A DNA stretch of 64,000 bases from Chromatiales bacterium 21-64-14 (GCA_002255365.1 NCBI01000006.1:18742-82741); one strand, 5' to 3'; positions 7,359 to 54,500 are shown, numbered from the stretch's first letter. The notes: generated from the sequence alone by a model not told the origin. Numbers and translations: made by a program.

Positions 7359-7413
7359 GTTGCAGTGCGAGATCCCGGCTGCCGTGGCGTCGCCGCCCAT
7401 GGGATCGCGCGGG

Positions 7414-13663: not shown

Positions 13664-13677
13664 ATATGACCGGTGGA

Positions 13678-14207: not shown

Positions 14208-15230
14208 ATGACAACGAACGATTTGGAGTGGCGTGAACAGGCCGCGGCCCAGCTGCACGGTACGCTGGCGCTGAGCGTGGCCTATATAGGAGTGGTAAAT
14301 GGTCTGTTCGCGGCCCTGGATGACCTGGATGGTGCGGGGCCGACGGTGCTTGCTAAGACCGCCGGCATGGATGTGGGCTACGTTACCCGTTGGTGCGACG
14401 CGGCCTACGCCTTCGGCCTCCTGGATGAGGCCGATGCGGCGCGCTTTACGGTCACGGAACTGGGCCGCGCCTACCGGGGTAATTCCTTGGGGACGCTGAT
14501 GCCCTTCGCGGTCCGGGCCATGTTGTCGACCCACATGGCAGAGCGGGCCGCCGCACTGATGCGCAGCGGGGAGCGTCCCGGGGATGGGGTGCTCGCGGAG
14601 CGGGAGACGGTGGTGCCGTGGTTCGGCCCGATGCTAGAACACCAGTTCGGAGGTTTTTTCGAGCGGGAGATCCTTCCGAGCCTGCCTGCCTACCGGGAGG
14701 TGGACCGGCGCGGTGGCCTGGCGGTGGATCTGGGCTGCGGGAACGGCTGGTATGTGCGTCGCCTGGTGGCCCGATACCCGGGATTGCGCGGGCTCGGTCT
14801 GGACGCCATGGCCGAGAACATCACCCAGGCTGCTGAGTTGGCGCAGGCGGCCGGGATCGCCGACCGCCTGCGCTTCGAGACCGGGGATATCCATGATTTC
14901 CAGTCCCTGGAGCCGGCGGATCTGATCGCCATGAACCGAGCCCTGCACCACGTGTGGCACGACCGGGAGAACGTGTTTCGCATCATCCACGACCACCTCA
15001 AGCCCGGTGGGTACGCTGTGATCTGGGAGCCGAACTGGCCCGTGGAACGTTCGGCCTTGCGTATGCCTGGGCGCGCAGGCATGGCATTCCAGAACTTGGC
15101 CGAACACGTGCAGGGCAACCACCTCTTGCGTCCCGACGAGATCGCCGCGCAGTTCCGCAAGGTCGGCATGGAGCCTGAGATCTACCTGTTCGCCGATGGT
15201 GGCGAAGCGGTGATTACCGCCGTGCGGTGA
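14208..15230 (+). CDS. class I SAM-dependent methyltransferase with N-terminal dimerisation/winged-helix-like domain (O-methyltransferase-like)
   Basis: LAVDLGCGNGW motif I, acidic motif II, and IHDHLKPGGYAVIWE; start ATG 14208 (MTTNDLEW). Confidence 0.6.
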   Translation: MTTNDLEWREQAAAQLHGTLALSVAYIGVVNGLFAALDDLDGAGPTVLAKTAGMDVGYVTRWCDAAYAFGLLDEADAARFTVTELGRAYRGNSLGTLMPFAVRAMLSTHMAERAAALMRSGERPGDGVLAERETVVPWFGPMLEHQFGGFFEREILPSLPAYREVDRRGGLAVDLGCGNGWYVRRLVARYPGLRGLGLDAMAENITQAAELAQAAGIADRLRFETGDIHDFQSLEPADLIAMNRALHHVWHDRENVFRIIHDHLKPGGYAVIWEPNWPVERSALRMPGRAGMAFQNLAEHVQGNHLLRPDEIAAQFRKVGMEPEIYLFADGGEAVITAVR

Positions 15231-16671: not shown

Positions 16672-17054
16672 GGCGGCGGTGGAAGTGGTCCGGGTACGGG
16701 CATCCGCGTTCCGCGCGGGACTGCGGCAAGGCCGGTTCCGGCGGGTGCCCGCGTCGAACGCCGTAGGCCGAGCGCATCACGCTAACCGAGTTCCGCCATC
16801 CACGCAAGGCGCCCGGTCCGGGTAGGGTGTGGACTGCGTTGCGGCGGATTCGCCATTCGGAGTAATCTTTATCATTGGTTGATTTGCCCGCCTTTCCGGG
16901 ATGCGGGCGACCGGAGCCAAGTCGCCCGGCGGTACCGACCGCAGGAGCCGTTCGAGGCGCGGACGATCAGGTTGAGCGGTGCCCCGAGTCCACCGGATTC
17001 GGGCTCAATGCGGCCGGACCCGGAGGGTTTGACCCAGGGGGTTGAAAGTCAGCG

Positions 17055-17330
17055 ATGGGAAAGTCGATATACGTGGGGAATCTGCCCTTCGATACTTCGG
17101 AAAATGAGGTGCGTGCGTTGTTCGCCCAGCACGGCGTGGTGCTTTCCGTCACGCTAGTCACTGACCGCGAGACCGGACAGCCGCGCGGCTTCGGATTCGT
17201 GGAGATGGAGCCGGGAGCCGTCGATACGGCGATCGAGCGACTCAACGGGGCGCAGTTTCAGGGCCGCGCGTTGCGTGTGAACGAGGCCCGCGGCAAGCAT
17301 TCCCGAGATGACGCGCCGCCCGGCGGATAG
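17055..17330 (+). CDS. RNA-binding protein (single RRM, RNP1/RNP2)
   Basis: IYVGNLPF (RNP2) and RGFGFVEM (RNP1) motifs; Gly-rich tail. Confidence 0.8.
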   Translation: MGKSIYVGNLPFDTSENEVRALFAQHGVVLSVTLVTDRETGQPRGFGFVEMEPGAVDTAIERLNGAQFQGRALRVNEARGKHSRDDAPPGG

Positions 17331-17455
17331 CCCGCATTTTTTATGACGCGTCGCGGCGCACGACGCGGTGCGCGGCGATCGGGCGGGAACCTACCAGCGC
17401 TGTGGGATCGGTGGGTCGCGTGCCGCCCGCACCGGCCCGCGGCGTATCCAGGTGC

Positions 17456-17815
17456 CTACGCATCGGAGTCTGGCAGCAGAATCCGGGTGCCTTCGGTGTC
17501 GAGCCCGTCCTCGCTGACGAAGCGCAGCTCCTGTGCTCCCACCCGCAGGACATCCCCGTGTTTCAGCAGATGGCGTGTCGCTGGCTTGCCGTTCACCTGG
17601 GTCCCGTTGGTGCTGCCGAGATCCTCCACGACGACGTCACACAGACTTTCCATGTAGGGACTGGGCCGGACCGTCAGCAGGGCGTGCCGGGTGCTGACGG
17701 TGGGGTCGTCGATCCGGATCTCGTTCTCCGGGCCGCGTCCGACGCGAAGCGTTCCCGAAACTATTTCGTACTCACGGATGGCGGTGCCTTCCAGGCTGTG
17801 TACGAGTTTGGGCAT
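17456..17815 (-). CDS. FHA-domain protein
   Basis: Internal ATG 17815; FHA signature GR..ENEIRIDDPTVSTRHALL...GSTNGTQVNG. Confidence 0.7.
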   Translation of the reverse strand: MPKLVHSLEGTAIREYEIVSGTLRVGRGPENEIRIDDPTVSTRHALLTVRPSPYMESLCDVVVEDLGSTNGTQVNGKPATRHLLKHGDVLRVGAQELRFVSEDGLDTEGTRILLPDSDA

Positions 17816-17873
17816 GGTGTTGCCTCCTTCTGAACCAAGCGGCGTTGCGCTGGTGTGATGGCGTGGGGCGCTA

Positions 17874-20405
17874 TCAGTTCGGACCCCGGCGCCGCCCGCC
17901 CTTGACCTGCTGACGGCATTTTCGCAGTGCCGCGGCCATGGCGGCGCCGTCGCTGTAGCGTTTTTTCGGGTCTTTTTGCAGGGCGGTGTTGATAACCCGG
18001 CCGACGCAGGCGGGCAGGCCACGGCGCTGCTTGCGGATGTCCACGTGACGCTGGTGAGCGATACGGTACATCAAGGTCGCCAGCGAATCCCCGGTAAACG
18101 GCAGTTGGGCGGTGAGCAGCTGATACAGGGTGACACCTAGGGAATACAGGTCCGTCGCCCCGTCCACCCGGTCTCCCGCCACCTGTTCCGGCGACATATA
18201 GGACGGGCTCCCCAACAGGGTTCCGGTGCGGGTGTGATGGCTGTCAGTCAGGGAAGCAATACCGAAGTCGGTCACTTTGATGTTCCCACCATCGCAGGGG
18301 TAGAGGATGTTCCCCGGTTTGATGTCGCGGTGGACCACGCCGCGGTGATGGGCGTAGTCCAATGCGTCCGCCACCTGTGCCCCGACGTCCAGCACTTCTC
18401 CCACGGGCAGGCGCCGGTCCGGTGCCGTGAACGACTCGAGGTTTTCCCCCTCCACGTAGTCCATGGCGATGTAGGCCACGTCGTGCTCTTCACCGACGTC
18501 ATAGATTGTCACGATGTTGGGGTGATCGAGCCGCCCGGCGGCCTGGGCCTCCTGCAGGAAACGCTGTTCGGCCGCCTGCAGGGCGCTGCCTTCGAACTCC
18601 TGGGACAATGCCAGGGTCTTGATGGCCACCGGCCGTCCGATCTTCGGGTCGGCGCCCAGGTAGACCATCCCCATGGTGCCCTTGCCCAGCTCGCGTTCCA
18701 GGCGGTACCGCCCGAGCATGGGTTTCTCCACCCGCGGATCGTTCATCACCAAGGTCTTGGTAGCCCCGAGTCCTACTCCGGCCCCGGCCCCGGCCGCGGA
18801 CGGAAAGTGTTCGGCGACGGATGCCAAGCGCCCGTGGCGCTCCCGTATGTCCCGGTACGCAGCGTCGTGACGGGCGATCCGGGCGTAGACCGCCATGGCC
18901 TTAGGGAACTGGCGGCGGCGCTCGAACTCCTGTCCCAATGAATACAGGGATTCCACCACGGCTGCATCCAGCGGGCAGCGGCACAGGATCTCGAACGCCT
19001 CGTCGAGTCGTCCCTGAGTCTGGAGCGCGGCGTGGGCGGCGGCGACGATTCCACGCATCCGGTGTCCCACCGCGAGCACCATTTGGGTCGTCACCAGGAA
19101 TACCGCCGGTAGTGTCAGGGGCAGCCACAGCAGATGGGTTACGAGTGCGAGCACTTCGGCGTTGAGCAGCAGCAGGGCGAGCGCGCCGCTCAGCCACAGG
19201 CCGCGGCGCCCGTGCATGGCGGAAGGCAGAAGCAGCAGCCATAGCGCCAGCAGGAGAATCAGGGCGCGCTGTGCTCCGAAGAACCACGTCGGTACGGTGA
19301 TACCGGTGCCGTTCAACAGGCTGTCCACCACCGCGGCGTTCCAGGTAACCGGGGTATAGCGCAGCCCCCCGACACCCGGGAACGGCGTCATCTGGTCGGG
19401 CGCGGTGAGACCCACGAGCACGATCCGCTGCCGCAACCGGCTCGCTGGAACCTCGCCTGCCCACCAGCGTGCCAGCGAATAGACAGGTACCGCGAGGCCG
19501 CCGCGGGTATCCCGGGGCGGCTGCGGATACCACCGATAACCCGGCCCTGTGCGGCGCATGAGCTGGCCGATCTGGATCCCACGACCCGGCATCGGTACCA
19601 CGGCGCCCATCGGCATCTCTACCGCCTGGGCCGCGAGCCGCAGCGCGAAGGATGGGAGGCGTTGACCGTCCACCCGGGGGAGCAGCGCGGCGCCCCGCGC
19701 GCGGCGTTGCTGCGTGTGGACCAGGCCTACGCCCGCCGCGCCGCGCATCAGGGACTCGAGGGGTGCGCGTACCACCTGGGGCGGGGTGCCAGGTGGCGCC
19801 AGGAAGGGTCGCAACAGCGTGGGGTAGGGGGGCGGCAGCAGGTCCCGAGCGGTCACCACTGCGGATTGCAAGGCGCCGGGCAGCGGCCGCGTTTCAGAGG
19901 TGGTGTGACCGTAGGCCGCGAGTATGACATTCCGCGTTTCCGCGAGGGCTTGTGCCAGTACGGTATCGGGGTCGGCATGGGCCAGCCATGCACGCACCTC
20001 CCGGGCCCCCGCGCTGTTCATCGTCTGCGCGTCGGCGCGCAGCTGCGCGAGACCCGGCGGTGTCTGGGATCCCGCGAGGGGGAGCAGCAGGCCTACGGCC
20101 CGGGGGTGGACGTCTTGCAGGCGCGTGACGATCCCGGCCAGCAAATCGTGCGGCCAGGGCCACGGACCCATGCGGGCGAGGGTGGCGGTATCGATGGCCA
20201 ACACCGCAACCGCGGCGGAATCCGGCGCAGGGGGCAGGAGGCGCGCGGCGAGTTCGTAGGCACGGTCTTCCACAGATTGCAAGGCGGCCGTGTAGGTGCC
20301 GAGCACCATGCAGCCGGCGGCAATGACAATCAGGAACCGGTGGTGGGTCCAGAGGGCAGGTCGCACAGGTGGGCCGTCCTGACGGTGCCGGGCGCCGAGA
20401 CGCAT
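17874..20405 (-). CDS. CHASE2 sensor domain Ser/Thr protein kinase
   Basis: N-terminal CHASE2-like periplasmic region flanked by TM helices; C-terminal Hanks kinase (GKGTMGMVY, VAIK, HRDIKPGNIL, DFG, SPEQ). Confidence 0.75.
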   Translation of the reverse strand: MRLGARHRQDGPPVRPALWTHHRFLIVIAAGCMVLGTYTAALQSVEDRAYELAARLLPPAPDSAAVAVLAIDTATLARMGPWPWPHDLLAGIVTRLQDVHPRAVGLLLPLAGSQTPPGLAQLRADAQTMNSAGAREVRAWLAHADPDTVLAQALAETRNVILAAYGHTTSETRPLPGALQSAVVTARDLLPPPYPTLLRPFLAPPGTPPQVVRAPLESLMRGAAGVGLVHTQQRRARGAALLPRVDGQRLPSFALRLAAQAVEMPMGAVVPMPGRGIQIGQLMRRTGPGYRWYPQPPRDTRGGLAVPVYSLARWWAGEVPASRLRQRIVLVGLTAPDQMTPFPGVGGLRYTPVTWNAAVVDSLLNGTGITVPTWFFGAQRALILLLALWLLLLPSAMHGRRGLWLSGALALLLLNAEVLALVTHLLWLPLTLPAVFLVTTQMVLAVGHRMRGIVAAAHAALQTQGRLDEAFEILCRCPLDAAVVESLYSLGQEFERRRQFPKAMAVYARIARHDAAYRDIRERHGRLASVAEHFPSAAGAGAGVGLGATKTLVMNDPRVEKPMLGRYRLERELGKGTMGMVYLGADPKIGRPVAIKTLALSQEFEGSALQAAEQRFLQEAQAAGRLDHPNIVTIYDVGEEHDVAYIAMDYVEGENLESFTAPDRRLPVGEVLDVGAQVADALDYAHHRGVVHRDIKPGNILYPCDGGNIKVTDFGIASLTDSHHTRTGTLLGSPSYMSPEQVAGDRVDGATDLYSLGVTLYQLLTAQLPFTGDSLATLMYRIAHQRHVDIRKQRRGLPACVGRVINTALQKDPKKRYSDGAAMAAALRKCRQQVKGGRRRGPN

Positions 20406-21246: not shown

Positions 21247-21889
21247 GATGTCCCCTCAATGGTTGCGAAGTCCGGCGGCGCGCGGGTCGCGTGCGGCGCC
21301 ATGATGAGACCGCAGGCGGATTCGGCGTGGCCTCCCTGGGCCGCCGTGCCCCGGCGTCGGCACCGCGCTATGGTCCCATAACTGAAGCTCCGATCCAAGG
21401 GAGCGGCGTGCCGTTCCGGCGGCCCTGGTACGCTTTACCAGTGAATTCAATAATAAATTGAATTATATATGGATAATTATCAGTAATTATCAAAGAAGCG
21501 GTATAGGCGCGGTGGCAGGTAATGCTCAAGGGTGCCCGACCGGGCGCCGGCACGCGGCAGGGGGATGGGTAACCCACTCGGCGCGGAGGTGGCGCCATGC
21601 ACACGCGGTACTAGATGCCGGAGGACGTTGGCCTTCGGCTCCCGGGCGATCTGCGGTTCTCGTTCCGGGAGAGGCTCCGGGTAGTCCAGCGCTATCTGCG
21701 CGAAGTGCGCCGCGGCCAGCCGGTGATCGGCTTCCCTGGCCACGGGAGAATTCGGGTCCGCGCGGTCTGAACCCCGCTTCACGCCCGTCTGGTTCGGTGC
21801 CGCGCCAGCGTTGCGCGGGCCGCGGTATGTCATGACTTTTAAATATACAGCAGTTACCATGAAATATTTGTGGTCGGCGATAGGACGCC

Positions 21890-23962
21890 ATGGACATCAT
21901 CGACCTGAAGCAGCCAGAACTCTATTTCAATCGTGAACTGAGCCTGTTGGAATTCAGCGACCGCGTATTGGAACAGACCAAGGATGAGACGGCGCCACTC
22001 ATTGAGCGGCTCCGCTTCCTGTGTATCGCCAGTACCAACCTCGACGAATTCTTCGAGATCCGCGTCGCTGGGCTCAAGCAGCGTGCGGAACTGGGCGCAG
22101 TGCAATCCGGGCCCGACAACCGCACTCCCCAGGAGGTGCTGAAGGCAATCAGCGCCAAGGCGCGGAGATTGGTGGATGAACAGTACCGCGTCCTCAACGA
22201 TGTGCTGATCCCGCGGCTCGCCGAGCAGAACATCCGTTTCATCCGCCGTACGGAATGGACCGAGCCTCAGGAGGCATGGGTACGCAAGTACTTTGAAGAA
22301 AGTCTGCTGCCGGTGCTTTCCCCGCTGGGCTTGGATCCGGCTCACCCGTTTCCGCGTATTCTGAACAAGAGCCTCAATTTCATCGTATCTTTGGAGGGCA
22401 AGGACGCCTTCGGGCGCGGTGCCCAGGTGGCGGTGGTTCAGGCCCCGCGGGCGCTGCCGCGCATCATCCAGTTGCCTCCGGAGGACACCGGAGGCGGGCC
22501 TTGTGACTTCGTGTTCCTGTCTTCCGTCATACATGCCTTCATCGATCAGCAGTTCACCGGCATGAAGGTCAACGGTTGTTATCAGTTCCGGGTCACGCGC
22601 AACAGCGACCTGTTCGTGGACGAGGAGGAAATCGACGACCTGTTGCGTGCGGTCGAGGGCGAATTGGCCTCGCGCCGCTACGGGGCGGCAGTGCGCCTGG
22701 AGGTCGCCCATGACTGCCCGGACGACATGGTGGATTATTTGCTGAATAAATTTCAGCTCGGCCGCGACGACCTGTATCAGGTCAACGGGCCGGTGAATCT
22801 GAACCGCCTGTCCGCCGTCTGCGACCTCGTGGACCGTCCGGATCTCAAGTATCCCGGTTTCAGCTCCAGTCTCCCGGCGCGCCTCATGGGCAACCCGGAC
22901 TTGTTCGAAGTGCTGCGCCGTCAGGATATGTTGCTGCACCATCCGTTCGAGTCGTTCCTGCCGGTCATCGACCTCCTGCGTCAAGCCGCATCCGATCCCG
23001 ACGTGCTCGCCATCAAGCAGACTCTTTATCGCACGGGCCCGGAATCCGCGGTGGTGGATGCCTTGGTGGCCGCCGCCCAGGCGGCCAAGGAAGTCACCGT
23101 GATCATCGAGTTGCGGGCGCGCTTCGACGAGGCCGACAATATCGGGTTGGCCACTCGCCTGCAGGAGGCGGGCGCACATGTGGTCTACGGGATCGTCGGG
23201 TTCAAGACCCACGCCAAGATGATGCTGGTGGTGCGGCGCGAGGGGCGCGTGCTGCGTCGCTATGTGCATCTCGGTACCGGAAACTATCATCCCCGGACCG
23301 CGCGGCTGTATACGGATTACGGTTTGTTTACCGCCGATCCGGTGATCGGTGAAGATGTCCACCGGATCTTCCTGCAGCTTACCAGCGTGGGTCGGGCGTC
23401 GAAGATCCGCAAGATCCTCCAGTCCCCGTTCACCCTCCACGAGGGTATGCTCGCGCGGATCGACCGGGAGACCCGGAACGCCGCGGAAGGGCGCGCTGCG
23501 CGCATCATCGTCAAGCTCAATTCGCTGGTGGAGCCGCAGATCATCCAAGCGCTCTACAAGGCCTCCATGGCCGGGGTGCGTGTCGACCTGATCGTGCGCG
23601 GTATCTGCTGCCTGCGCCCCGGAGTTCCGGGGGTGTCGGATCGGATTCGCGTGCGCTCGGTGGTCGGGCGTTTTCTCGAACATACCCGGGTGTATTTCTT
23701 CCACAACGGCGGTGAGCCGGAAGTGTTCTGTGCCAGTGCCGACTGGATGGAGCGCAATTTTTTTCGCCGCGTGGAAGTCTGCTTCCCGATTGAATCGCGC
23801 GCGTTGCGCGAGCGGGTGGTGAAGGAACTCAAACTCTATCTCAAGGACAACACCCAGGCATGGGTGCTCCAGTCCGACGGGTCCTATCAGCGGCGTACCC
23901 CCCGGGGCGGGAGCGCGCCGTTCTCCGTTCAGCAGGCCCTTCTGGCCAGCTTGGCCGGTTAA
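21890..23962 (+). CDS. ppk: polyphosphate kinase 1
   Basis: Colinear with PPK1: ELYFNRELSLLEFNRRVL N-terminus; two PLD-like HKD regions; 690 aa. Confidence 0.9.
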   Translation: MDIIDLKQPELYFNRELSLLEFSDRVLEQTKDETAPLIERLRFLCIASTNLDEFFEIRVAGLKQRAELGAVQSGPDNRTPQEVLKAISAKARRLVDEQYRVLNDVLIPRLAEQNIRFIRRTEWTEPQEAWVRKYFEESLLPVLSPLGLDPAHPFPRILNKSLNFIVSLEGKDAFGRGAQVAVVQAPRALPRIIQLPPEDTGGGPCDFVFLSSVIHAFIDQQFTGMKVNGCYQFRVTRNSDLFVDEEEIDDLLRAVEGELASRRYGAAVRLEVAHDCPDDMVDYLLNKFQLGRDDLYQVNGPVNLNRLSAVCDLVDRPDLKYPGFSSSLPARLMGNPDLFEVLRRQDMLLHHPFESFLPVIDLLRQAASDPDVLAIKQTLYRTGPESAVVDALVAAAQAAKEVTVIIELRARFDEADNIGLATRLQEAGAHVVYGIVGFKTHAKMMLVVRREGRVLRRYVHLGTGNYHPRTARLYTDYGLFTADPVIGEDVHRIFLQLTSVGRASKIRKILQSPFTLHEGMLARIDRETRNAAEGRAARIIVKLNSLVEPQIIQALYKASMAGVRVDLIVRGICCLRPGVPGVSDRIRVRSVVGRFLEHTRVYFFHNGGEPEVFCASADWMERNFFRRVEVCFPIESRALRERVVKELKLYLKDNTQAWVLQSDGSYQRRTPRGGSAPFSVQQALLASLAG

Positions 23963-24099
23963 CGGGCGGTCTACCCGCCGCGCGACAGTCCGCGCTTCGC
24001 GCCGGTGTTTGTCACACGGGCGCGGCGGCGACCTCAGGACGGCGCCCATACCGGTGGCGAACCTCACCATCCCTCGGGCCCACTCATGAACCATGCGCG

Positions 24100-25605
24100 C
24101 TAGGTGATCGTCAGCGTGTAGCCGTCGGCCTTCAGGTAGTCGGCTTCCTGTTCCAGATCCGCCTGAGTGAGAGGATGCGCTTCCATCCACCCCTCCGGAA
24201 AGCGCAGCGCGATGGTTTTCGCATCGCCTTCCAGCTGTATCTGAGGAGGGAGGTTAGGATTGCGGCTGCGATGCACCACCACGGCGAGGCGCAGGATGAG
24301 GGCAAGGCGGGTTGCGGGTTGAATCCACGCCGCGGGCAGTTCGCGCAACACTGCCACGGGAAACTTGCGCCGATGGGCGCGGACGACGGCCGCAAGCAAT
24401 TGCTGGTCACGGCGCGAGAAACCCGCCAGATCGGCGTTGGCGAGCACGTAGGCGCCATGCTTGTGGTAGCCGCTGTGGGCGATGCCCATGCCGAGCTCGT
24501 GCAGCCGCGCGGCCCAGCTCAGCAGGCGTTCCGAGGCATCCTCGTCCAAGGACCATGTCCCCGCCACTTGGCCGAGAAAGTCCAGTGCGGTGCGTTCCAC
24601 CCGCTGGGCCTGTGCGAGATCGACGTTGTAGCGGCTTGCCAAGTTCGTCACGGTGCGCCCGCGCACATCGTCCTGGGCATGACGCCCGATGAGATCGAAC
24701 AGCAGGCCCTCGCGCAGCGCGCCGTCGGATACCCGCATGCGCTCGATGCCCAGCGCCTCGAAGGTGGCCAGGGCCACGGCGACGCCGCCGGGAAACACCG
24801 GGACGCGCGCCTCGCTCACCCCCGGAAGCTTGATCCGGCCCACATGACCGGCCTTCAGCAGGGCCTCCTGCAACCGGCGCAAGGCGGGTAAGGTGATCCC
24901 GGCGTCGCTCCAGCCCGATTCCAGCACCGCGCGGAGGATGGCGCGCAGGGTACCGGATGCGCCGATCGCGTCGCCCCAGCCGAGCCGCCGGAACGCCTCT
25001 ACGTGGGGTTCCAGTTCAGTGCGCGCCGCCAGCTCCGCGCGGCGCCAGCGCTTGGGGGTGATCTCTCCATCCGCGAAGTGGGCGCGACTCATGGTGACAC
25101 AGCCCATGTAGAGGCTTTCCATGTGTACCGGCTCGAAATGCTCGCCGATGATCAGCTCGGTGCTGCCGCCACCGATATCCATGGCGAGTCGTCGGCTACC
25201 GTCGTCGGCCACGCTGTGGGAGACCCCTGCGTAGACCAGCCGCGCCTCCTCGACCCCGGAGATCACCTCGATGGGGTGCCCGAGCGCCTGTTCGGCGGCG
25301 GCCAGGAATTCCGGGGCATTGCGGGCGCTGCGCAAGGTATTGGTGCCGACCGCGCGCACGCTCCCCGGCGCCATATGGCGCAGCCGCTGGCCGAAGCGTT
25401 CCAGGCAGGCGAGGGCGCGCTGCGCCGCCTCCTGCGTGATGCGGCGCTCCGCGTCCAAGCCACCAGCGAGGCGCACCATGTCATGCAGGCGATCGACCAC
25501 ACTGAGCTGCCCGTCCAGGAGCCGGGCGACCAGCATATGGAAGCTGTTAGAGCCGAGATCGACGGCAGCGACGGTCTCGGGTAGGGCTTTCCTGGCGCGG
25601 GGCAC
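24100..25605 (-). CDS. ppx: exopolyphosphatase (Ppx/GppA family)
   Basis: AAVDLGSNSFHMLVARL, DIGGGSTE, LPGVSEARV motifs colinear with E. coli Ppx; GTG 25605 fits the Ppx N-terminus; the ORF frame extends to 25806. Confidence 0.85.
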   Translation of the reverse strand: MPRARKALPETVAAVDLGSNSFHMLVARLLDGQLSVVDRLHDMVRLAGGLDAERRITQEAAQRALACLERFGQRLRHMAPGSVRAVGTNTLRSARNAPEFLAAAEQALGHPIEVISGVEEARLVYAGVSHSVADDGSRRLAMDIGGGSTELIIGEHFEPVHMESLYMGCVTMSRAHFADGEITPKRWRRAELAARTELEPHVEAFRRLGWGDAIGASGTLRAILRAVLESGWSDAGITLPALRRLQEALLKAGHVGRIKLPGVSEARVPVFPGGVAVALATFEALGIERMRVSDGALREGLLFDLIGRHAQDDVRGRTVTNLASRYNVDLAQAQRVERTALDFLGQVAGTWSLDEDASERLLSWAARLHELGMGIAHSGYHKHGAYVLANADLAGFSRRDQQLLAAVVRAHRRKFPVAVLRELPAAWIQPATRLALILRLAVVVHRSRNPNLPPQIQLEGDAKTIALRFPEGWMEAHPLTQADLEQEADYLKADGYTLTIT

Positions 25606-36298: not shown

Positions 36299-36314
36299 TG
36301 GCACGGGCATTGCT
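36299..36314 (+). promoter_or_regulatory. sigma-54 promoter upstream of flgB (TGGCAC-N5-TTGCT)
   Basis: Exact -24/-12 consensus TTGGCACGGGCATTGCTT ~30 nt upstream of the flgB ATG. Confidence 0.6.
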
Positions 36315-45914: not shown

Positions 45915-46817
45915 ATGCGTATCGCCACGATCGACATGTTTCAGCAGGGCACCGCGAGCATCCTGAACCAGCAGACCCTGCTGAGCCAGACGCAGCAGCA
46001 ACTGGCGACCGGGCAGCAGCTGCTCAGTCCGTCGGACAATCCCGCTGCGGCGGCGCAGGTGCAGAGCCTGGATGTGTCGATCAGTCAGACCAATCAGTAT
46101 CAAACCAATGCCGATGCTGCGACTGCTAGCCTCAATGTAGAAAACAGTGCTCTGACTTCCGTGGTCAATGGTCTGCAGAGCGCCAGGGACTTGGCCGTGC
46201 AGGGTCTGAACGGGACGCAGAGCGCGCAGGCACGCCAGGGCATCGCGACCCAGGTGCAGCAGATCCTTGATCAGGTCGTGAGCGTCGCCAATACTCAGGA
46301 TGTTAATGGGAAGTACATATTCGCCGGGTACAGCAGCGGCAGTGCACCGGTGAGCGCAACGGGTACCACCTACACCTATACGGGAGACAGTGGCCAGCGA
46401 CTCGCGCAGATCGGGCCGAGCCGGCAGGTCGCGGTGGGTGATTCCGGTTCCGCGGTGTTCATGAATGTCCCCGCGAGTGGGGGTGGGAAGCAGAGCGTCT
46501 TCAAGACCTTGTCGGACCTGATTGCGGGCTTGCAGGCCAACAACCCGAGTCAGAGTTCCCTGACGAATCTGGACAACGCGCTCAATAATGTTCTGACTGT
46601 GCAGACAGAGATCGGGTCGCGCCTCAATGCAATTTCCGACCAAAAAAATCTAAATACCAATTTCCTCACCCAAGTAACGACAAACCGGTCGCAACTGGCG
46701 GATGTGAACGTCGCCCAGGCTTCAATCCAACTCAATCAGCAGCTTCTGGCCTTGCAGGCGGCTCAACAGAGCTTTGCCAAGATCCAGGGCCTGTCCTTGT
46801 TTAATTACCTGCGCTGA
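45915..46817 (+). CDS. flgL: flagellar hook-associated protein 3 FlgL
   Basis: Flagellin-like N/C termini; follows flgK. Confidence 0.8.
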   Translation: MRIATIDMFQQGTASILNQQTLLSQTQQQLATGQQLLSPSDNPAAAAQVQSLDVSISQTNQYQTNADAATASLNVENSALTSVVNGLQSARDLAVQGLNGTQSAQARQGIATQVQQILDQVVSVANTQDVNGKYIFAGYSSGSAPVSATGTTYTYTGDSGQRLAQIGPSRQVAVGDSGSAVFMNVPASGGGKQSVFKTLSDLIAGLQANNPSQSSLTNLDNALNNVLTVQTEIGSRLNAISDQKNLNTNFLTQVTTNRSQLADVNVAQASIQLNQQLLALQAAQQSFAKIQGLSLFNYLR

Positions 46818-46847: not shown

Positions 46848-46863
46848 TGGTACGAAGCTTGCA
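46848..46863 (+). promoter_or_regulatory. candidate sigma-54 promoter (TGGTAC-N5-TTGCA) upstream of the giant gene
   Basis: GG-N10-GC spacing correct; one mismatch to the -24 consensus; ~260 nt leader. Confidence 0.35.
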
Positions 46864-47122
46864 TCTTGCATTGAGTCTCATGCGAGCTGCTGCGTGGCTC
46901 GCCGTTCTCCTCGGCGAAGGGATGCGACCGTGACGGCAGAACACGGAAATACGAGCCCGGCCGGTCCGAATGCCTGCCGTATACCCGCACGTCAGCCAGC
47001 GCCGGTGCCCATGCGCCGCGTGGTCACCGAGTTGCGGCCAGATTGCGCCTGGCCTGGCCGGTGGTCGGAATCCCTTAGTGGCGCTCGCGCCTGTCTCGCG
47101 CCAAACACGTGGGTCCCAAACA

Positions 47123-50100
47123 ATGGATGCGGATGAATTGTTGATCGCTTGTGTGGCGGAAGACCGTCGTGATCACCACATCAAGGTCGCGAATCTGGTC
47201 GGTACGATCAGGTCTTTCGGCGGGAGTTTAGCGAGCGCTCGAATCGCGGTTAATTACGTCGAGTCTGTCGATTCCGGAATCCGCGCATCGCTCGAGGAAG
47301 CGGGTGCCGATGTGAGGGTCGTGCCGCGGTTTGATCCGCGCTGTCCGCATGCCAACAAGCTTCGTATGTTGGAACAGGTGGCAGGTGTGGGCCTGCTCGT
47401 CGCCATGGATGTCGATATGGCTGTGGTTAGGGACTTCCGCTCACAACTCCACACGGGTGGGATAAGCGCCAAGATCGTCGATCTTAATCCCTTGAGTGAG
47501 ACGCAGTGGCACCAGCTTTTTGACTACGCAGGGCTGCCGATGCCCGGGCAGCGATACGTATGTAGTTCCGATGGTGGCGTGGTCCCCCCGTATTTCAATA
47601 GTGGCCTGCTTACCATTCCAGTGCAGTGGATATCGTCCCTGCGCGCGAGCTGGGGTGCATACGTGGCATGGCTGCTCGACGCCAGAATGGACCTGCCTTG
47701 GCTTGAACAGCACGCGTTCTTTACCGACCAACTGGCACTCGCCCTCGCACTGCAGGCGATCCAGTGCCCGGTAATACCACTGCCGATTGAAATGAACTTC
47801 CCAACCCATATACCAGTGGCACCCAACTTCCATCCGGACGATGTAGAGCCATATATAGTTCACTACCATGACCGCGTGAATGCGGACGGAACCTTGGGTC
47901 TTACGGCTTACCGTGCACCCAATCTGGGGATCAAGCGGGTAAACGAATCGATTATAGGCAACATAACCCTCGGCGATGCCGGTACAGCATCGGACCGATT
48001 CAGTAATTCGGTGTTCTGGGAAAAACATTATCGAGACGCGCCTGATCTCGGTTCCGGGGTCGGATCGCGGGCGCAGTTTGCGCGGTATAAGAGCGTGATT
48101 ATTGACCAGCTCACGCAGGAAATGGGGCCTGCCAGTGTGTTGGATGTGGGTTGTGGTGATCTCGCATCAGTCGCGGGCCGACCATGGCCCGAATATACCG
48201 GAATTGACATAGCAGGATGCGTAATAGAGCGCAATCGAACGGCATTTCCGCATTGGAAGTTTCTCCCCGGCGATTTTCTGGAGTTATCTGAGAGTGCTGA
48301 CATCGACGCGGATTTGGTGCTGTGCTTTGACGTCCTGATCCATGAGCATGACCCAATCCGATATGAACAAATTGTTGGGAAATTGCTTCGATCGACAGGC
48401 CGCTGCCTGATGATCGGAGGGTACGACTCCCCCCCATTGCAACGGTACTCCAGTGGGATTAACGCGTTTCATGAACCGCTGTCGGATACCCTTCGCCGCT
48501 ACGGCGTGACTCGAATTGTACGGATTGGTGGCTACCGGGGGGTGACCATGCTGCGGGTAGACCTCGACGATGGGTTGGTCACTCCGCAGCGTAGGCGTAG
48601 TGAAAAAGACGACGATCGGGGGTTCGCGATATTGCGCAGCGGCACGCGGGATGACACGACGCCGGACCGGCCGCAGGAATCCAGTATTACCTCGGGCGTG
48701 GCGAAGGTTTCCTCAGCGCACATGAGTCCGGAACCGGTAGCTGAAGGTGAATCCCCTGAGGTTGGGGATATGCCACAAGCCATCCTCATTGTCGGGATGC
48801 ATCGCAGTGGAACGTCAGCGCTGGCGCGGGTGTTGAACCTGCACGGTGTCCGTCTCGGATCCCGGATGATCCCCCCTCAGGACGATAATGCGCGCGGGTT
48901 CTGGGAGCATCCCGCTGTCATGGCGCTAAATGAACGTGTGTTGGCGTATTTCGGAGGAGCATGGGATCGTCCTGGTCCACTGAGGAATGATGGCCAGAGT
49001 CTGGAGGAGTTCACGGCACTGTTGAACGATGCAGCGACATTAGTGGACGGCGAGTTCTCGGCTACGAAGCTTTGGGGCATCAAGGACCCGCGCTTGTGCC
49101 GTACGCTCCCGTTTTGGCACCGCGTGCTGGAGCGCGCGCGGACTGAGTCGCGGCACGTTCTTGTCATCCGTAACCCGCTGGAAATCGCTGCCTCCTTGGC
49201 GAAGCGAGATGGGTTCTCGCAGACGAGGTCACTTCTGCTCTGGTTCAGATATCTTTTGGACGCCGAGCACGACAGCCGTGGCACCAAGCGCGTCTTTATT
49301 ACCTACGAGCAATTACTCGGTGATTGGAGAAGCGCGATTCGGCATCTTGCCTCCGGTCTTGGAGTCGTCCTGGATCCGGAGACGGAAACCGTCGCGCGTC
49401 GCGTGGAGGCCTTCCTTTCTCCGCAGCTGCGGCATCACCACATGAGGCGACCGCCCACGGTCCAAGACCACGCCCGGTTGGGCCCGCTGGCCGCCGAGTT
49501 CTATGATGCCTTACTCGCAGCGTCACACGGTGATGAAAGTGGACTCGCTGACCTGGATCGGTTGCGGTCGGATATTGAACTTCTGGAGCAGGATTTTAAC
49601 CATAAGAATGCAGCTCCCGAATCCACATCGGGCGCAATACGGAGCATGGTAGAGCCGGAGGCAATCCTTCGCCAGTTGGGCCGGCCGTTACGCGTCGGGA
49701 TCCTTTCTACCGAGAGGAAGGAATGGGGGTGCGCGCACATTCGTCTAGTCAGCCCATTGGCATCTCTCCAGAAGCAGGTGGAGGTCATCTGGGCGGTCCC
49801 TGAAGCGGACGCAACCGCGAGGATCGATTTCGAGCTGCTCGATTCCGCCGATTTGTTTGTTGTCCAAAGGTTCTTCCCATCCGCGGTCAACATGGAGTTG
49901 ATCCGGCTGTTGTTGTCTTCGGGAAAGCCGGTGATCTACGAGGCCGACGACCTCGTAACGGCGATTCCGGAGGCTAACCCTGGGTACGCCGTGGCAGCGG
50001 CAATGCGGCCGTATATTCTGGAAACGGTGACGTCCGTGCATGCGCTGACGGTTTCGACGGAAGAGCTGCGGCGGGCTTTTGCGTCGTACAACAGCAATAT

Positions 50101-53100
50101 TTATATTTTGCCAAACCTGCTGGATGACCGTTTGTGGAATCGGGAGCCGGTCGACGGGAGCGCCGTAGTCGTGATCGGCTATGTCGGCACCTGGACCCAC
50201 CTGGATGACTTGGAAATCATCGAGCCGGCACTCGAAATCATTGCGAAAATATATGGTAGCCGCGTACGGTTCGAATTCGCTGGCTGCATCTCAGAGCGTC
50301 TGAGGGGGCTGCCCAATCTGACGGTGCGAGAGTTTCAGCCGGGCTACGCTGCTTATGCACAGACCCTGCAGGGCCTTGGCGTTGACATCGCGGTGGCGCC
50401 GCTTCGTGATACCGCGTTCAACCGGGTAAAGAGCAATATTAAATGGCTGGAATATTCCGCCTGCGGGATCGCGGGTGTCTACTCAGCAGTTCCGCCCTAT
50501 GTTGCGGACGTGGTGCATGGGGAAACGGGTTTGCTGGCAGGGGAGGATGTGGATGAATGGGTCAATGCGATCGCGAGTTTGGTGGAAAGCCGGGACCGGC
50601 GATTGGCGATCGCTGGTAAGGCGCGGGAACGGGTGTTGGCCGACTACACGGCGAGCCGTGGCGCCCGATCCTACCTTCAGGCCTATGTGGACGTGCTTGC
50701 TAACTTCCAAACCAGACCAAATCGCATGCCGCAGATATCGGCTGAGTACGAGCTTTGGCGGGAGCGCCGTTCCCACAGGGTAGCGACGAGGTTGGACGGG
50801 CTCCGCGATGCGCCCGCCATTCATCTCATCGTCTGCCTCCACGAGGGACAGGAGGCGGCGCTAGCCGATACCGTTGATACGCTCGCCGCGCAGACCTACG
50901 GTGGATGGGGCCTTAGTGTTGTCGCGGATTTTCCATGCCGACAGCCGGACTTCGAGGCGCTGCCGATGTGCGAATGGGTAGCGTCCGACGGCGAGTTCCA
51001 GGATACGGTAAATCAGCTTGTGGCCACTTCGCAGGCTGATTGGTTGGCGCAGATCGATGTCGGAGACCGCTTCGATGCGTCCTTGCTTGCCAGCTTGGCG
51101 CACTACTTGGCTCTGTTCGGCGATTGGCGGGTGGTTTATGTGGATGAAGATGTATGGTTGGCGGACGGGCGCCGTGTCGCCCCTAAATTCAAGCCGGATT
51201 TCAACTTAGATTTGCTTCGTTCTACACCCTATGTAGGCGCCCTCTGTTTCGTGCGCAGGGATGTGTTGGTCGCGATCGGAGGATTTTCGGGCGGGGATGG
51301 CCTAAGCCGAACGTATGATACCGTGCTGCGAGTGCTGGAACATTCGGGGGAAAAGTCGGTCGGTCATGTGCCAGATTTACTTTTCCACCGCAGTGGCGGC
51401 AATGCTGCCGCAGTGGATTTCGCCGCCTCACACGGTGTATGTCGAAGACATCTGGAAGCGCATCTGCAGCGTTGTGGCGTGCACGCGGTTGTTCATCAGG
51501 GTCGTGCCGAGGGTACCCAGTTTATCGAGTATCCAGTGGGCGAACACTGCCGCGTGTCTGTGGTGATCCCCACCGATGGACGTTTGCGGTTTCTTGAGCC
51601 ATGTATCCGGACGGTACTTTCCAACACGGAGTACCCGGACCTCGAAGTCGTCGTGGTGACCGGAACGGAACAGGATCCTAGCCTGGGCCAGTGCCTGTAC
51701 GAACTAATGGCTTGCGACAACCGGGTGCGTGTGGTTTCGAGCGGCGGAGAAAATGGGGTTACGGCGGCTCTGGACGCGGGGGTCCGGGAGGCGTCAGGAG
51801 AATATGTGCTGCTGTTGCACGACGACACATTGATAGTCCAGAAGGACTGGTTGAGCCGGATGGTATCCCTCGCCAAGCGCGACGACGTTGGTGTCGTAGG
51901 GGTAAGGCTGGTGTTCCCTGACCAGCGGATACAGAACTCGGGGATCATCCTGGGCGGCGGCCCCTGGGGCGTTGCGGAGTGCCGGGATGTTGGGAAAACG
52001 CTGACGGACCCAGGGTACCTGGGGCGTCTTGCCTGCGTCCAGGACCTTTCCGCGGTTAGCGGGGCTTGTCTGATGATCCGCGCTGAACTGTACCGACAGG
52101 TCATGGCGACCGAGATGGCGGCGGCGGGACATTTCTGGGATGTGGCCTTGTGTCTGCGAGTGGGTAGGTTGGGGTACAAGGTGGTGTGGACCCCGTACGT
52201 GACGGTGGTCCACCATCATACATCCGTGCGTGAGGCGTGTGATGCTGATCGGCACGGGATCGAGCGGGACGCGGCGCGGATGCGGGCACAGTGGCTGGGA
52301 CGACTTGCGAGTGACCCGGCCTATAACCGCAATCTTTCGCTCACGGGTGGGGGTTGGCGCCCGGATGTAAACCTTTTTTGTCCGTGGGATCCGGCACTCC
52401 GTGAGGACCACCGGATCGTCGGGGTCGGGGCCGGCTCCTACGGATCCTGGCGCTATCGCCTCGCGGATCCCCTGGCGGGCCTCGAGGGCGCAGGGCGTGC
52501 CCGCCCGATGGTCGTCGAGTATTACAGTGAGACAGCGCCCATGCCTACGGTGACGGAGCTCGCGCGGTTAGGGCCCGATACCCTCTTCATGCACAACGCT
52601 GTTCACGATTCGCAGATTGCCCTCATCAAGGAGTACAGGGAACTCCGCCAGGGATTCGTGGTGTTCGGGCAGGACGACCTGATGTTCGAGCTTCCCGGGA
52701 AAAATCCCTTCCAGAAAACCGTGTTCAAGGACATCAAGCGCCGGCTGCGGACCTGTATTGGTTTGGCGGACCGCTTGGTCGTGACGACGGAACCGTTGGC
52801 AGAGGCCTACCGGGAGTGGGCCCAGGATGTGCGGATCGTGCCGAACTATCTCGAACGCTCGGTCTGGGGCGCACTTCGGTCAGAACGCCGGACCGCGCGG
52901 CGACCCCGGGTTGGCTGGGCGGGGGCAATGCAGCACGGTGGGGATCTGGAGCTCCTGATCGAGGTAGTGAAAGAAACCGCGGGTGAATTGGATTGGGTGT
53001 TCTTTGGGATGTGTCTGGAGGAACTGCGGCCATTGGCGGCAGAACTGTGCCCGGCGGTGGCTTTTGACGACTATCCCAAGGTGCTGGCACGGCTGAACCT

Positions 53101-53446
53101 GGACTTGGCTGTCGCTCCTCTGGCGCGCAACCGTTTCAACGAGGCCAAGAGCAATCTACGGATCTTGGAGTACGGGGCGTTGGGGTGGCCGGTGGTGTGC
53201 AGCGATATCCAACCCTACCGGGATGCGCCGGTATGTCGCGTGCCTAACAACTCGCGGGCGTGGATCGAGGCGATCCGGGAGCGCGCCCACGACCTGGACG
53301 CGGCGGCGGTGGAGGGAGACCGGTTGCGGGACTGGGTCCTGAGGGATTGGATGCTTGAGGATCACCTGGAGCAATGGCTGGAGGCGCTGGTTTGTCCCGG
53401 GGCGGCGGTGGGCGGGGCGGACATTCAGGCACACGGAGGTGGCTGA
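47123..53446 (+). CDS. giant multidomain protein: DxD domain + class I SAM-methyltransferase + sulfotransferase + GT-B-like + two GT2 + second GT-B-like domain (candidate flagellin glycan synthesis/modification enzyme)
   Basis: Single 2158-codon ORF (46970..53446); likely start ATG 47123. VLDVGCGDL (MTase motif I) ~48.1 kb; GMHRSGTS (PAPS 5'-PSB) ~48.8 kb; GT2 DxD/VVIPT regions ~50.8-52.2 kb; repeated AVAPL..N..KSN...LEY.A.G motif at ~50.4 and ~53.1 kb. Lies between flgL and fliC where Pseudomonas carries its flagellin glycosylation island. Confidence 0.7.
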   Translation: MDADELLIACVAEDRRDHHIKVANLVGTIRSFGGSLASARIAVNYVESVDSGIRASLEEAGADVRVVPRFDPRCPHANKLRMLEQVAGVGLLVAMDVDMAVVRDFRSQLHTGGISAKIVDLNPLSETQWHQLFDYAGLPMPGQRYVCSSDGGVVPPYFNSGLLTIPVQWISSLRASWGAYVAWLLDARMDLPWLEQHAFFTDQLALALALQAIQCPVIPLPIEMNFPTHIPVAPNFHPDDVEPYIVHYHDRVNADGTLGLTAYRAPNLGIKRVNESIIGNITLGDAGTASDRFSNSVFWEKHYRDAPDLGSGVGSRAQFARYKSVIIDQLTQEMGPASVLDVGCGDLASVAGRPWPEYTGIDIAGCVIERNRTAFPHWKFLPGDFLELSESADIDADLVLCFDVLIHEHDPIRYEQIVGKLLRSTGRCLMIGGYDSPPLQRYSSGINAFHEPLSDTLRRYGVTRIVRIGGYRGVTMLRVDLDDGLVTPQRRRSEKDDDRGFAILRSGTRDDTTPDRPQESSITSGVAKVSSAHMSPEPVAEGESPEVGDMPQAILIVGMHRSGTSALARVLNLHGVRLGSRMIPPQDDNARGFWEHPAVMALNERVLAYFGGAWDRPGPLRNDGQSLEEFTALLNDAATLVDGEFSATKLWGIKDPRLCRTLPFWHRVLERARTESRHVLVIRNPLEIAASLAKRDGFSQTRSLLLWFRYLLDAEHDSRGTKRVFITYEQLLGDWRSAIRHLASGLGVVLDPETETVARRVEAFLSPQLRHHHMRRPPTVQDHARLGPLAAEFYDALLAASHGDESGLADLDRLRSDIELLEQDFNHKNAAPESTSGAIRSMVEPEAILRQLGRPLRVGILSTERKEWGCAHIRLVSPLASLQKQVEVIWAVPEADATARIDFELLDSADLFVVQRFFPSAVNMELIRLLLSSGKPVIYEADDLVTAIPEANPGYAVAAAMRPYILETVTSVHALTVSTEELRRAFASYNSNIYILPNLLDDRLWNREPVDGSAVVVIGYVGTWTHLDDLEIIEPALEIIAKIYGSRVRFEFAGCISERLRGLPNLTVREFQPGYAAYAQTLQGLGVDIAVAPLRDTAFNRVKSNIKWLEYSACGIAGVYSAVPPYVADVVHGETGLLAGEDVDEWVNAIASLVESRDRRLAIAGKARERVLADYTASRGARSYLQAYVDVLANFQTRPNRMPQISAEYELWRERRSHRVATRLDGLRDAPAIHLIVCLHEGQEAALADTVDTLAAQTYGGWGLSVVADFPCRQPDFEALPMCEWVASDGEFQDTVNQLVATSQADWLAQIDVGDRFDASLLASLAHYLALFGDWRVVYVDEDVWLADGRRVAPKFKPDFNLDLLRSTPYVGALCFVRRDVLVAIGGFSGGDGLSRTYDTVLRVLEHSGEKSVGHVPDLLFHRSGGNAAAVDFAASHGVCRRHLEAHLQRCGVHAVVHQGRAEGTQFIEYPVGEHCRVSVVIPTDGRLRFLEPCIRTVLSNTEYPDLEVVVVTGTEQDPSLGQCLYELMACDNRVRVVSSGGENGVTAALDAGVREASGEYVLLLHDDTLIVQKDWLSRMVSLAKRDDVGVVGVRLVFPDQRIQNSGIILGGGPWGVAECRDVGKTLTDPGYLGRLACVQDLSAVSGACLMIRAELYRQVMATEMAAAGHFWDVALCLRVGRLGYKVVWTPYVTVVHHHTSVREACDADRHGIERDAARMRAQWLGRLASDPAYNRNLSLTGGGWRPDVNLFCPWDPALREDHRIVGVGAGSYGSWRYRLADPLAGLEGAGRARPMVVEYYSETAPMPTVTELARLGPDTLFMHNAVHDSQIALIKEYRELRQGFVVFGQDDLMFELPGKNPFQKTVFKDIKRRLRTCIGLADRLVVTTEPLAEAYREWAQDVRIVPNYLERSVWGALRSERRTARRPRVGWAGAMQHGGDLELLIEVVKETAGELDWVFFGMCLEELRPLAAELCPAVAFDDYPKVLARLNLDLAVAPLARNRFNEAKSNLRILEYGALGWPVVCSDIQPYRDAPVCRVPNNSRAWIEAIRERAHDLDAAAVEGDRLRDWVLRDWMLEDHLEQWLEALVCPGAAVGGADIQAHGGG

Positions 53447-53520: not shown

Positions 53521-53547
53521 TCAAGTTTTGTCCGATGCGATCCGATA
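53521..53547 (+). promoter_or_regulatory. sigma-28 (FliA)-like promoter upstream of fliC
   Basis: TCAAGTTT-N13-CCGATAC resembles TAAAGTTT-N11-GCCGATAA. Confidence 0.4.
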
Positions 53548-53663: not shown

Positions 53664-54500
53664 ATGGCACTAGTCATCAACACCAACATGAATTCTCTGG
53701 TTGCACAGAACAACCTGAGCAAGTCCCAAGATGCCCTGTCTCAGGCCATCCAACGCCTCTCCTCTGGACTGCGGATCAACAGTGCCAAGGACGACGCAGC
53801 TGGATTCTTCACTTCCCAGCTGATGACGCAGGACATCAACGGCATGAATCAGGCGGTGCGCAACGCCAACGACGGCGTATCTCTGGCCCAGACCGCCGGG
53901 GGCGCGATGACCCAGATCAGCAGCGACCTGCAGCGTATCAACCAGCTCGCGGTGCAATCGGCCAACGGTACCGTCCAGAACCGTACCGGCCTCCAGGCCG
54001 AGGTGGATCAGTTGACCCAGGATATCTCGCAGATCGTTCAGACCACCAGCTTCACCGGCGTCAATATGCTGGCTGGGACCAGCGGCACCATCACCTTCCA
54101 GGTCGGAGCGCAGGGCAGTGCCTCCGATCAGATCTCGGTGACCGGGCTCAATCTCACCACGCTGAAGTCCTATGCCGCCGGGCTGACTGCCACCGGCACC
54201 GTCGATGTTAGCACCCAGGCGGCGGCCTCCGCGGCGATCGCCAACGTCCAGGCGGATATCCAGACCGTGGCGGCCGACAGTGCCACCTTCGGCGCGGTGG
54301 AGAACCGGTTCAGTGCGGTGATCAATAACCTGACGAATACGGCGCAGAACCTTACCGCGGCCCGTAGCCGTATCGTGGATGCGAACTTCGCGCAGGAAAC
54401 CGCGAATCTATCACGGGCCCAGATCCTGCAGCAGGCCGGTGTGGCGGTGCTCCAACAGGCCAACACGAGTCCCAATATCGCGTTGACGCTGTTACGGTAA
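53664..54500 (+). CDS. fliC: flagellin
   Basis: Conserved D0/D1 termini (MALVINTNMNSLVAQNNL...; C-term LSRAQILQQAGVAVLQQANTSPNIALTLLR); 278 aa with a short Ser/Thr-rich central segment. Confidence 0.9.
   Translation: MALVINTNMNSLVAQNNLSKSQDALSQAIQRLSSGLRINSAKDDAAGFFTSQLMTQDINGMNQAVRNANDGVSLAQTAGGAMTQISSDLQRINQLAVQSANGTVQNRTGLQAEVDQLTQDISQIVQTTSFTGVNMLAGTSGTITFQVGAQGSASDQISVTGLNLTTLKSYAAGLTATGTVDVSTQAAASAAIANVQADIQTVAADSATFGAVENRFSAVINNLTNTAQNLTAARSRIVDANFAQETANLSRAQILQQAGVAVLQQANTSPNIALTLLR

Follow-up and report, generated by a model that had tools for sequence, protein, structure and literature searches.

A 64,000-nt stretch of DNA from the uncultured Chromatiales bacterium 21-64-14, a metagenome-assembled genome (MAG; GCA_002255365.1, NCBI01000006.1:18742-82741; this whole stretch is the window below), encodes between the flagellar genes flgL and fliC a soluble seven-module megaenzyme of 2107 aa (47123..53446, plus strand). 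As predicted from domain and profile searches, the module order is GT8-like glycosyltransferase (GT), methyltransferase (MT), linker, sulfotransferase (ST), GT-B, GT-A-like, GT2 and GT-B; i.e. five sugar-transferase domains are combined with a methyltransferase and a sulfotransferase in one polypeptide. On balance the protein appears to be a cytoplasmic assembly line that builds and tailors a flagellin O-glycan before export, a reading supported by its gene being the only one between flgL and fliC, by a sigma-54-like site upstream, and by the lack of a transmembrane segment. The core enzyme type and its genomic slot are already established; what appears to be new is the combination of seven modules, and above all the cassette with the sulfotransferase.

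The 6.8-kb gap between flgL (45915..46817, +; TIGR02550, 274.5 bits) and fliC (53664..54500, +; Flagellin families) holds a single gene on the same strand as both flanks, and the open reading frame (ORF) is uninterrupted, as a preliminary description of this DNA had it, being stop-free over 46970..53446 (+). The ATG at 47123 is the likely start codon, because the preceding 51 codons resemble translated non-coding sequence and because an NCBI protein of exactly 2107 aa that is essentially identical to the window translation begins there (P0001, "MAG: glycosyltransferase [Gammaproteobacteria bacterium]", contig JBTSDA010000009.1 of GCA_054605995.1), as the closest homologues also align from residue 1. 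The upstream neighbors are flgI, flgJ, flgK and flgL, and downstream follow fliC, flaG, fliD, fliS, fliT, a PilZ protein gene, fleQ, fleS, fleR, fliE and fliF; the locus is thus a polar flagellar cluster of the Pseudomonas type (flg/fli/fleQSR). A motif scan places a sigma-54-type promoter-like site (TGGTACGAAGCTTGCA, 46848..46863, +) 260 nt 5' of the start codon, where it would act as promoter of the megaenzyme gene; there are two such sites in the window versus 0.04 expected, the other one (36299-36314) lying 5' of the flagellar rod and hook genes. Since fliC is preceded at ~115 nt by its own sigma-28-type promoter-like site (TCAAGTTT-N11-ATCCGATA, 53521..53547, +; one match versus 0.02 expected), it is probably transcribed apart from the megaenzyme gene. 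The 278-aa flagellin, the presumed acceptor, has a Ser/Thr-rich center (TTSFTGVNMLAGTSGTITFQVGAQGSASDQISVTGLNLTTLKSYAAGLTATGTVDVSTQ); both it and FlgL (300 aa) are of the short type. No transmembrane segment is predicted in the megaenzyme by the Kyte-Doolittle scale, the one 19-residue window with a mean above 1.6 lying within the folded GT8-like domain, and this fits glycosylation of flagellin in the cytoplasm.

The methyltransferase, sulfotransferase and GT families that the preliminary description had read from short motifs are recovered by hidden Markov model (HMM), profile and fold searches, the Pfam scans covering the whole protein as well as each segment separately, and the motifs it quoted are all present (VLDVGCGDL, GMHRSGTS, the RNP of IRNPLEIAAS, VSVVIPT); its count of six modules gives way to seven. 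Module 1 (aa 1-280; 47123..47962, +), the N-domain, has the features of a retaining GT-A domain of GT8 fold, namely a DxD, a downstream metal His and an N-S/A-G sugar-binding loop; its DxD and HxH positions are intact, and the catalytic and cofactor motifs are invariant in the GT8-like alignment. The domain resembles the GT8 part of the O-antigen enzyme WbbM. Because neither Glyco_transf_8 nor any other Pfam family matches aa 1-320 at E<=10, module 1 is called GT8-like by fold and is not filed as a GT8 member; no homologue carries a Pfam annotation over this domain. Module 2 (aa ~300-480; 48020..48562, +) is a class I S-adenosylmethionine (SAM) methyltransferase, with Methyltransf_11, _31, _12, _23 and _25 matching aa 326-441 (in the whole protein, 24.1 bits for Methyltransf_11, cut-off 21.2, and 27.1 bits for Methyltransf_31, cut-off 27), with a match to PDB 3l8d at E 1.4e-3, and with motif I intact as VLDVGCGDL. 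It is followed by a low-complexity linker (aa 481-552; 48563..48778, +) that coincides with a two-gene junction in a close relative. Module 3 (aa 553-800; 48779..49522, +) has the fold of a sulfotransferase of the type that uses 3'-phosphoadenosine 5'-phosphosulfate (PAPS). As an isolated segment it matches Sulfotransfer_3 (aa 554-750) at 32.3 bits versus a cut-off of 27, and Sulfotransfer_1 at 24.5 bits versus 22, but in the whole-protein scan the former score is a borderline 26.7. The PAPS motifs sought were G-x-x-R/K-S-G-T-S/T and an R followed eight residues on by S; the 5'-phosphosulfate loop GMHRSGTS and the 3'-phosphate motif R139-x-P141...S147, which in the window protein lies in IRNPLEIAAS, are invariant in 17 ST homologues including the window protein, and they align with GMPRSGTT and IRDGRAVVHS of tyrosylprotein sulfotransferase.

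Module 4 (aa 853-1200; 49679..50722, +) is a GT-B domain, GT4-like in its Pfam matches (Glyco_trans_1_4, 34.5 bits; Glyco_trans_1_2, 35.6 bits), with the C-terminal GT-B half at aa 1017-1185. It is a paralogue of module 7 (28% identity, E 3e-21), as expected from the two related GT-B-like domains described earlier. Module 5 (aa 1215-1470; 50765..51532, +), which opens the conserved core, is a divergent GT-A/GT2-like domain to which no Pfam family is assigned in the segment scan and which pairwise BLAST does not match to module 6. Profiles are needed to relate the two (hhalign, 89.6%, E 1.9e-6) and also link module 5 to the second GT2 domain of the K4CP chondroitin synthase (E 2.5e-7) and to SpsA (E 6e-4). 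The canonical DxD position of module 5 reads D-V-G-D and is unconserved in the family, whose members do share D127 and D129 of a YxDED motif without exception and also conserve the FKPDFNLDLLRS stretch. Module 6 (aa 1471-1745; 51533..52357, +) is a canonical GT2 (Glycos_transf_2, 68.2 bits, aa 1477-1701; Glyco_tranf_2_3, 60.9 bits) with the motifs VSVVIPT and LLLHDD and a match to GalT1 of PDB 5hea. The two GT2 domains announced earlier thus reduce to one canonical domain, module 6, whereas module 5 is GT2-like at the level of profiles. Module 7 (aa 1755-2090; 52385..53392, +) is identified as GT-B by Pfam and by its paralogy to module 4: Glyco_trans_1_4 scores 23.8 bits on the module alone, under the cut-off of 27, versus 50.1 bits in the whole protein, where the match falls into two stretches, and a weaker second GT-B match lies at ~aa 1927-2086. 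A PDB search with the whole protein gave weak GT2 and methyltransferase matches and no solved relative of the core, and in an NCBIfam scan all matches were far under the cut-offs, none being specific for the N-domain or module 5.

The most widely shared part of the protein is its C-terminal core. When one genome per species was scanned, a relative turned up at 407 loci; the best 80 of these were examined by tblastn, the queries being the individual modules and the flagellar proteins of the window. The conserved unit, present in 80 of the 80 loci, consists of the last three modules (GT-A-like, GT2 and GT-B; ~870 aa), and module 7 is its best-conserved part (41-61% identity). Flagellar genes lie within 10 kb of the core in 55 of these loci and on both sides of it in 29, and where flgL and fliC are both seen, the core lies between them in Gamma-, Beta- and Alphaproteobacteria; the core is strongly, though not invariably, associated with flagellar genes. 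The proposed correspondence to the glycosylation-island slot of Pseudomonas is borne out by a homologous gene directly after flgL in P. migulae, whose 1197-aa product (P0042) is 36% identical to aa 1231-2085 over 855 aa (E 7.5e-153), and which is followed by genes for a 976-aa GT, DegT, NeuB and ACP synthase III. In Stellaceae an ST-core gene precedes rmlC, rmlD and rmlA, with fliC after them, an order that fits rhamnose as sugar donor. Genuine orthologues of module 4 occur in few loci (L003, L006, L017, L057, L068 and L070), and the contexts of two distant matches (P0002 and P0003) were uninformative, consisting of short contigs or non-flagellar surroundings.

Very large ORFs are common in the flgL-fliC slot of uncultured Gammaproteobacteria, with lengths of 1796, 1834, 1852, 1883, 1968, 1976, 2110, 2137, 2193, 2482, 2593 and 2656 aa, so that in sequence databases the rarity first ascribed to this degree of fusion does not hold. 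The extra modules of these sister megaproteins include tetratricopeptide repeats (TPR), FkbM and other methyltransferases, and further GT2 and GT4 domains; Thiogranum megaproteins carry a fused Sulfotransfer_3 domain (116-120 bits), and at 26 of the 80 loci the core is accompanied by a sulfotransferase-like domain. The cultured Plasticicumulans lactativorans DSM 25287 has after flgL a DegT gene, a stand-alone sulfotransferase (54 bits), a GT2-methyltransferase and a 2137-aa core megaprotein. When residues 1-1200 were searched exhaustively with HMMER against 1.84 billion representatives, none of the matches spanned all four N-terminal modules, and no other protein with all seven modules was found. 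Among the best 145 matches of this search, the domain content was GT-B-core in 28 representatives, N-MT in 21 (a ~495-aa two-domain unit), N-MT-ST in six (~800 aa), ST-core in five, N-ST in four and ST-GT-B-core in one (P0208, 1568 aa).

A search for split genes in relatives, which the preliminary description had called for, shows the modules to be split in P. lactativorans and in the relative closest to the N-terminal part (L091-L093, 68% identity), where a 499-aa N+MT gene is followed by an overlapping ST-led gene in a different frame. The gene junction falls at the window linker, aa 481-552. Both an N+MT protein (~500 aa) and an ST-GT-B-core protein (~1570 aa) thus exist separately in relatives, and since 499 + 1568 approximates 2107, the window protein probably arose by fusion of two such genes. 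A one-base assembly frameshift was considered as cause of the fusion and is unlikely, the ~70-residue linker giving no alignment to the split relative.

Base composition bears on the history of the modules. The lower GC content first reported for the gene stands as a number, 59.6% versus 63.0% for the window, but flgL (58.3%) and flgK (60.1%) are as low, and overall GC is therefore a weak signal of transfer. What differs is GC at third codon positions (GC3), 67% for the gene versus 73-81% in its neighbors. By module, GC3 is 63% (N-domain), 57% (MT), 65% (ST), 69% (GT-B), 63% (GT-A-like), 72% (GT2) and 77% (C-terminal GT-B), a gradient that suggests residence of the modules in this genome for different times, the N-terminal ones being the later arrivals. 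Horizontal acquisition as proposed was overstated, resting solely on this modest GC3 shift.

Homologues of the first three modules behave as one functional unit, which extends beyond flagellar loci to other sugar clusters. N, MT and ST are three neighboring separate genes in one locus (L088), and in another (L086) an N+MT gene lies near sulfotransferase genes, together with ABC-2 transporters and rml genes. By analogy to known chain terminators, it is conceivable, at less than even odds, that the cassette is a portable capping module that adds a terminal alpha-linked sugar, methylated and sulfated, and so sets the length and charge of the glycan; such analogues are the modified viosamine of P. 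syringae and the methyl-adding O-antigen terminators of the WbdD type. The N-domain homologues (P0137-P0204, and those of L086, L088 and L090) make up a ~290-aa protein family with a GT8-like fold and no Pfam model, repeatedly fused or adjacent to methyltransferases and sulfotransferases.

The closest functional precedents come from Pseudomonas, where fgt1 and fgt2 lie beside flgL, upstream of fliC (PMC3402453), and fgt1 is required for any flagellin glycosylation (PMC3402453, PMC3927599). Fgt1 of P. syringae transfers rhamnose to flagellin Ser and its loss yields unglycosylated flagellin (PMC3927599, PMC12915359); six serines are glycosylated, and a terminal modified, methylated viosamine limits growth of the rhamnose chain (PMC3927599). 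The window gene is like Fgt1/Fgt2 of P. syringae (amygdali) pv. tabaci in its position directly after flgL, in encoding a large soluble multi-GT protein, and in being paired with a short Ser/Thr-rich flagellin. It differs in that a single gene replaces the island, the additions being a second GT-B and the GT8-like, methyltransferase and sulfotransferase modules; the ~335-aa N-terminal part of the P. migulae protein is missing from it. P. syringae, for which no sulfation is known, encodes its methyltransferase (VioM) and its capping transferase (VioT) by separate genes of an island located far away. FgtA of P. aeruginosa PAO1 (PA1091), in the same slot, is a GT2 fused to a glycan-modifying phosphotransferase (PMC11833859), and the megaenzyme, likened to it by description, would similarly combine GT2 and glycan decoration in one polypeptide, although the PA1091 decoration is phospho-N,N-dimethylthreonine and two activities contrast with seven modules.

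FlmG and Maf, likewise modular, also act in the cytoplasm and O-glycosylate flagellin that is yet to be exported (PMC7591256, PMC4065374). Unlike FlmG, whose N-terminal TPR binds flagellin and which transfers pseudaminic acid, the window protein has no TPR, a module present in many of its sister megaproteins, and the MptE-like domain of Maf is also missing from it. The comparison with WbdD/WbdA and WbbM is by analogy only, since those enzymes use undecaprenyl-linked chains at the membrane and the window locus has no transporter, lipid-carrier enzyme or anchor. For negatively charged sulfur groups on the glycans of motility filaments there are two precedents, the sulfonated peptidylamido-glycan of Clostridioides difficile type B flagellin (PMC5207245) and the sulfated N-glycans of Halobacterium salinarum archaellins (PMC11980604). 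However, what C. difficile carries is no PAPS-derived sulfate ester but a sulfonate on a peptide in amide linkage, and the Halobacterium glycans are archaeal, N-linked and made by an unrelated pathway organization. A literature search found no bacterial flagellin O-glycan with a sulfate ester, in line with the earlier remark that sulfated flagellin glycans are little described, and no publication that connects bacterial flagellin glycosylation with a sulfotransferase.

From the observed reading frame and its position, the seven domain identities, the cofactor motifs, the family distribution and the synteny, we infer flagellin as acceptor, an order of action, a likely sugar, and a glycan that carries the sulfate and methyl groups. 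The Fgt1-like three-domain core would start the chain on Ser/Thr of the exposed center of FliC, the first sugar probably being a deoxyhexose such as rhamnose, and would then extend it; the GT-B of module 4 would add a further sugar and the GT8-like domain one more in alpha linkage, as a retaining enzyme. The glycan would be O-methylated by the MT with SAM and O-sulfated by the ST with PAPS, and the methylated, sulfated sugar might form a cap at the non-reducing end. An N+MT gene and an ST-GT-B-core gene would have been fused to give the single polypeptide.

A number of observations weigh against this assignment. Homologues of the N-MT-ST cassette also occur in ABC-transporter polysaccharide clusters and so are not flagellum-specific, and the region examined is devoid of flagellar genes in 25 of the 80 core loci. 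In one of these (L004, Thiogranum sp.; 3642-20181) two core-family megaproteins, of 1730 and 1342 aa, adjoin nosR, nosZ, nosD, nosF and nosY, flagellar genes being absent to a distance of 10 kb, and the core family is therefore not confined to flagellar clusters. A whole-protein Pfam scan finds no TPR, PF01973 (MptE-like) or other recognizable flagellin-binding domain in the megaenzyme. Module 5, without a canonical DxD, may be non-catalytic, and the nearest structural neighbors of the ST are protein-tyrosine sulfotransferases, so that its acceptor may be a glycan or a protein. No gene for sugar-nucleotide or PAPS synthesis was found among 20 large ORFs upstream, at 1-36 kb, or the flagellar genes occupying the remainder of the window, and the ST-bearing islands of relatives likewise gave no PAPS genes, only rml and aminotransferase genes. 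P0042 is a positional equivalent of Fgt1, the characterized P. syringae Fgt1 being likened by description, and support throughout is from sequence of an uncultured MAG.

These points lend themselves to other explanations. The product could be a polysaccharide or glycoconjugate other than flagellin glycan, e.g. a chain resembling O-antigen or capsule whose terminus is methylated and sulfated, as would suit the core loci without flagellar neighbors, L004 among them, the clustering of N+MT and ST homologues with ABC-2 transporters, rml genes and other GT2s (L086, L088), and the likeness of the N-domain to WbbM. This is unlikely for the window gene, whose locus has neither transporter, lipid-carrier initiating transferase nor membrane segment, whose core is found between flgL and fliC in alpha-, beta- and gammaproteobacteria and is homologous to the Pseudomonas gene at the fgt1 position, and which has the flagellar-type sigma-54-like site upstream. 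A membrane-associated polysaccharide synthase in particular was set aside, as there is no transmembrane segment and no transporter. Several modules might alternatively be relics or scaffolds, module 5 especially and possibly the ST, within a flagellin GT that makes a plain, short, sulfate-free glycan. The absence of a Pfam match and of a conserved DxD in module 5, the ST score just at threshold in the whole protein (26.7 versus 27 bits) and the lower GC3 of the N-terminal modules, which suggests recent arrival, are in its favor. It is nevertheless doubtful in view of the invariance of both PAPS phosphate motifs in the 17 ST homologues, the intact GT8-like DxD/HxH and MT motif I, and the family-invariant acidic residues of YxDED in module 5, which suggest a conserved function.

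That the ST and/or MT modify the flagellin polypeptide itself, by O-sulfation of Tyr, Ser or Thr or by methylation of Lys or other residues, would be in keeping with the tyrosylprotein-sulfotransferase-like fold of the ST. But the acceptor of a sulfotransferase cannot be told from fold similarity, just one Tyr, without acidic neighbors, lies in the flagellin variable region, ST and MT travel with a GT8-like transferase as a cassette even in loci devoid of flagellin, and the Stellaceae ST is fused directly to the GT core beside rml genes; modification of the polypeptide is thus quite improbable. Still further from likely is that the 2107-aa ORF is an assembly artefact joining an N+MT gene to an ST-GT-B-core gene: the sequence does come from one MAG contig, and the 68%-identity relative has exactly this split with overlapping genes in different frames, but the 70-residue in-frame linker cannot be aligned to that relative, which rules against a one-base shift, and independent N-MT-ST fusions occur in six other representatives among the best 145 matches. 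Even split, the genes would be adjacent and co-directional, leaving the functional reading unchanged. Glycosylation of flagellin in the cytoplasm by a single multimodular enzyme accordingly stays the favored reading.

Filament stability and surface charge, the attachment of phages and recognition by the immune system are all influenced by flagellin glycans, and the groups found on known bacterial examples are methyl, acyl, amidino and phospho groups. If the cassette does serve as a cap, the glycan made here would be the first bacterial flagellin O-glycan to bear a sulfate ester, and sulfated flagella would be a widespread, unrecognized trait of environmental Proteobacteria, since about one third of the related species-level genomes carry an ST beside the core. 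Should the glycan be the substrate of the ST, flagella would be polyanionic in many environmental Proteobacteria. For the evolution of such pathways, the family suggests a conserved three-domain core extended through shuffling and fusion of catalytic modules, and it reveals a sizeable GT8-like transferase family, without Pfam model, that accompanies methyl- and sulfotransferases. A pathway contained in a single gene would also be a compact tool for glyco-engineering.

Several observations were made in passing at these loci. The flgL-fliC island of one relative (L025, 18987-21428) has an 813-aa ORF with an N-domain-like (GT8-like) part joined to radical SAM and SPASM domains, an architecture seen once among the loci examined. 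In P. lactativorans DSM 25287 (L030, 15291-18963) an OLD-family TOPRIM ATPase and a UvrD-type helicase directly follow the glycosylation megaprotein, a pair that resembles a Gabija-like defense system. Elsewhere in the window, an 843-aa Ser/Thr protein kinase with a CHASE2 sensor is encoded at 17874-20405 (-), and beside it, at 21854-24190, are overlapping long ORFs of 778 aa (-), without Pfam match, and 690 aa (+). At 5280-7358 a 692-aa fusion of a class II aldolase and a short-chain dehydrogenase resembles the bifunctional rhamnulose-1-phosphate aldolase/dehydrogenase.

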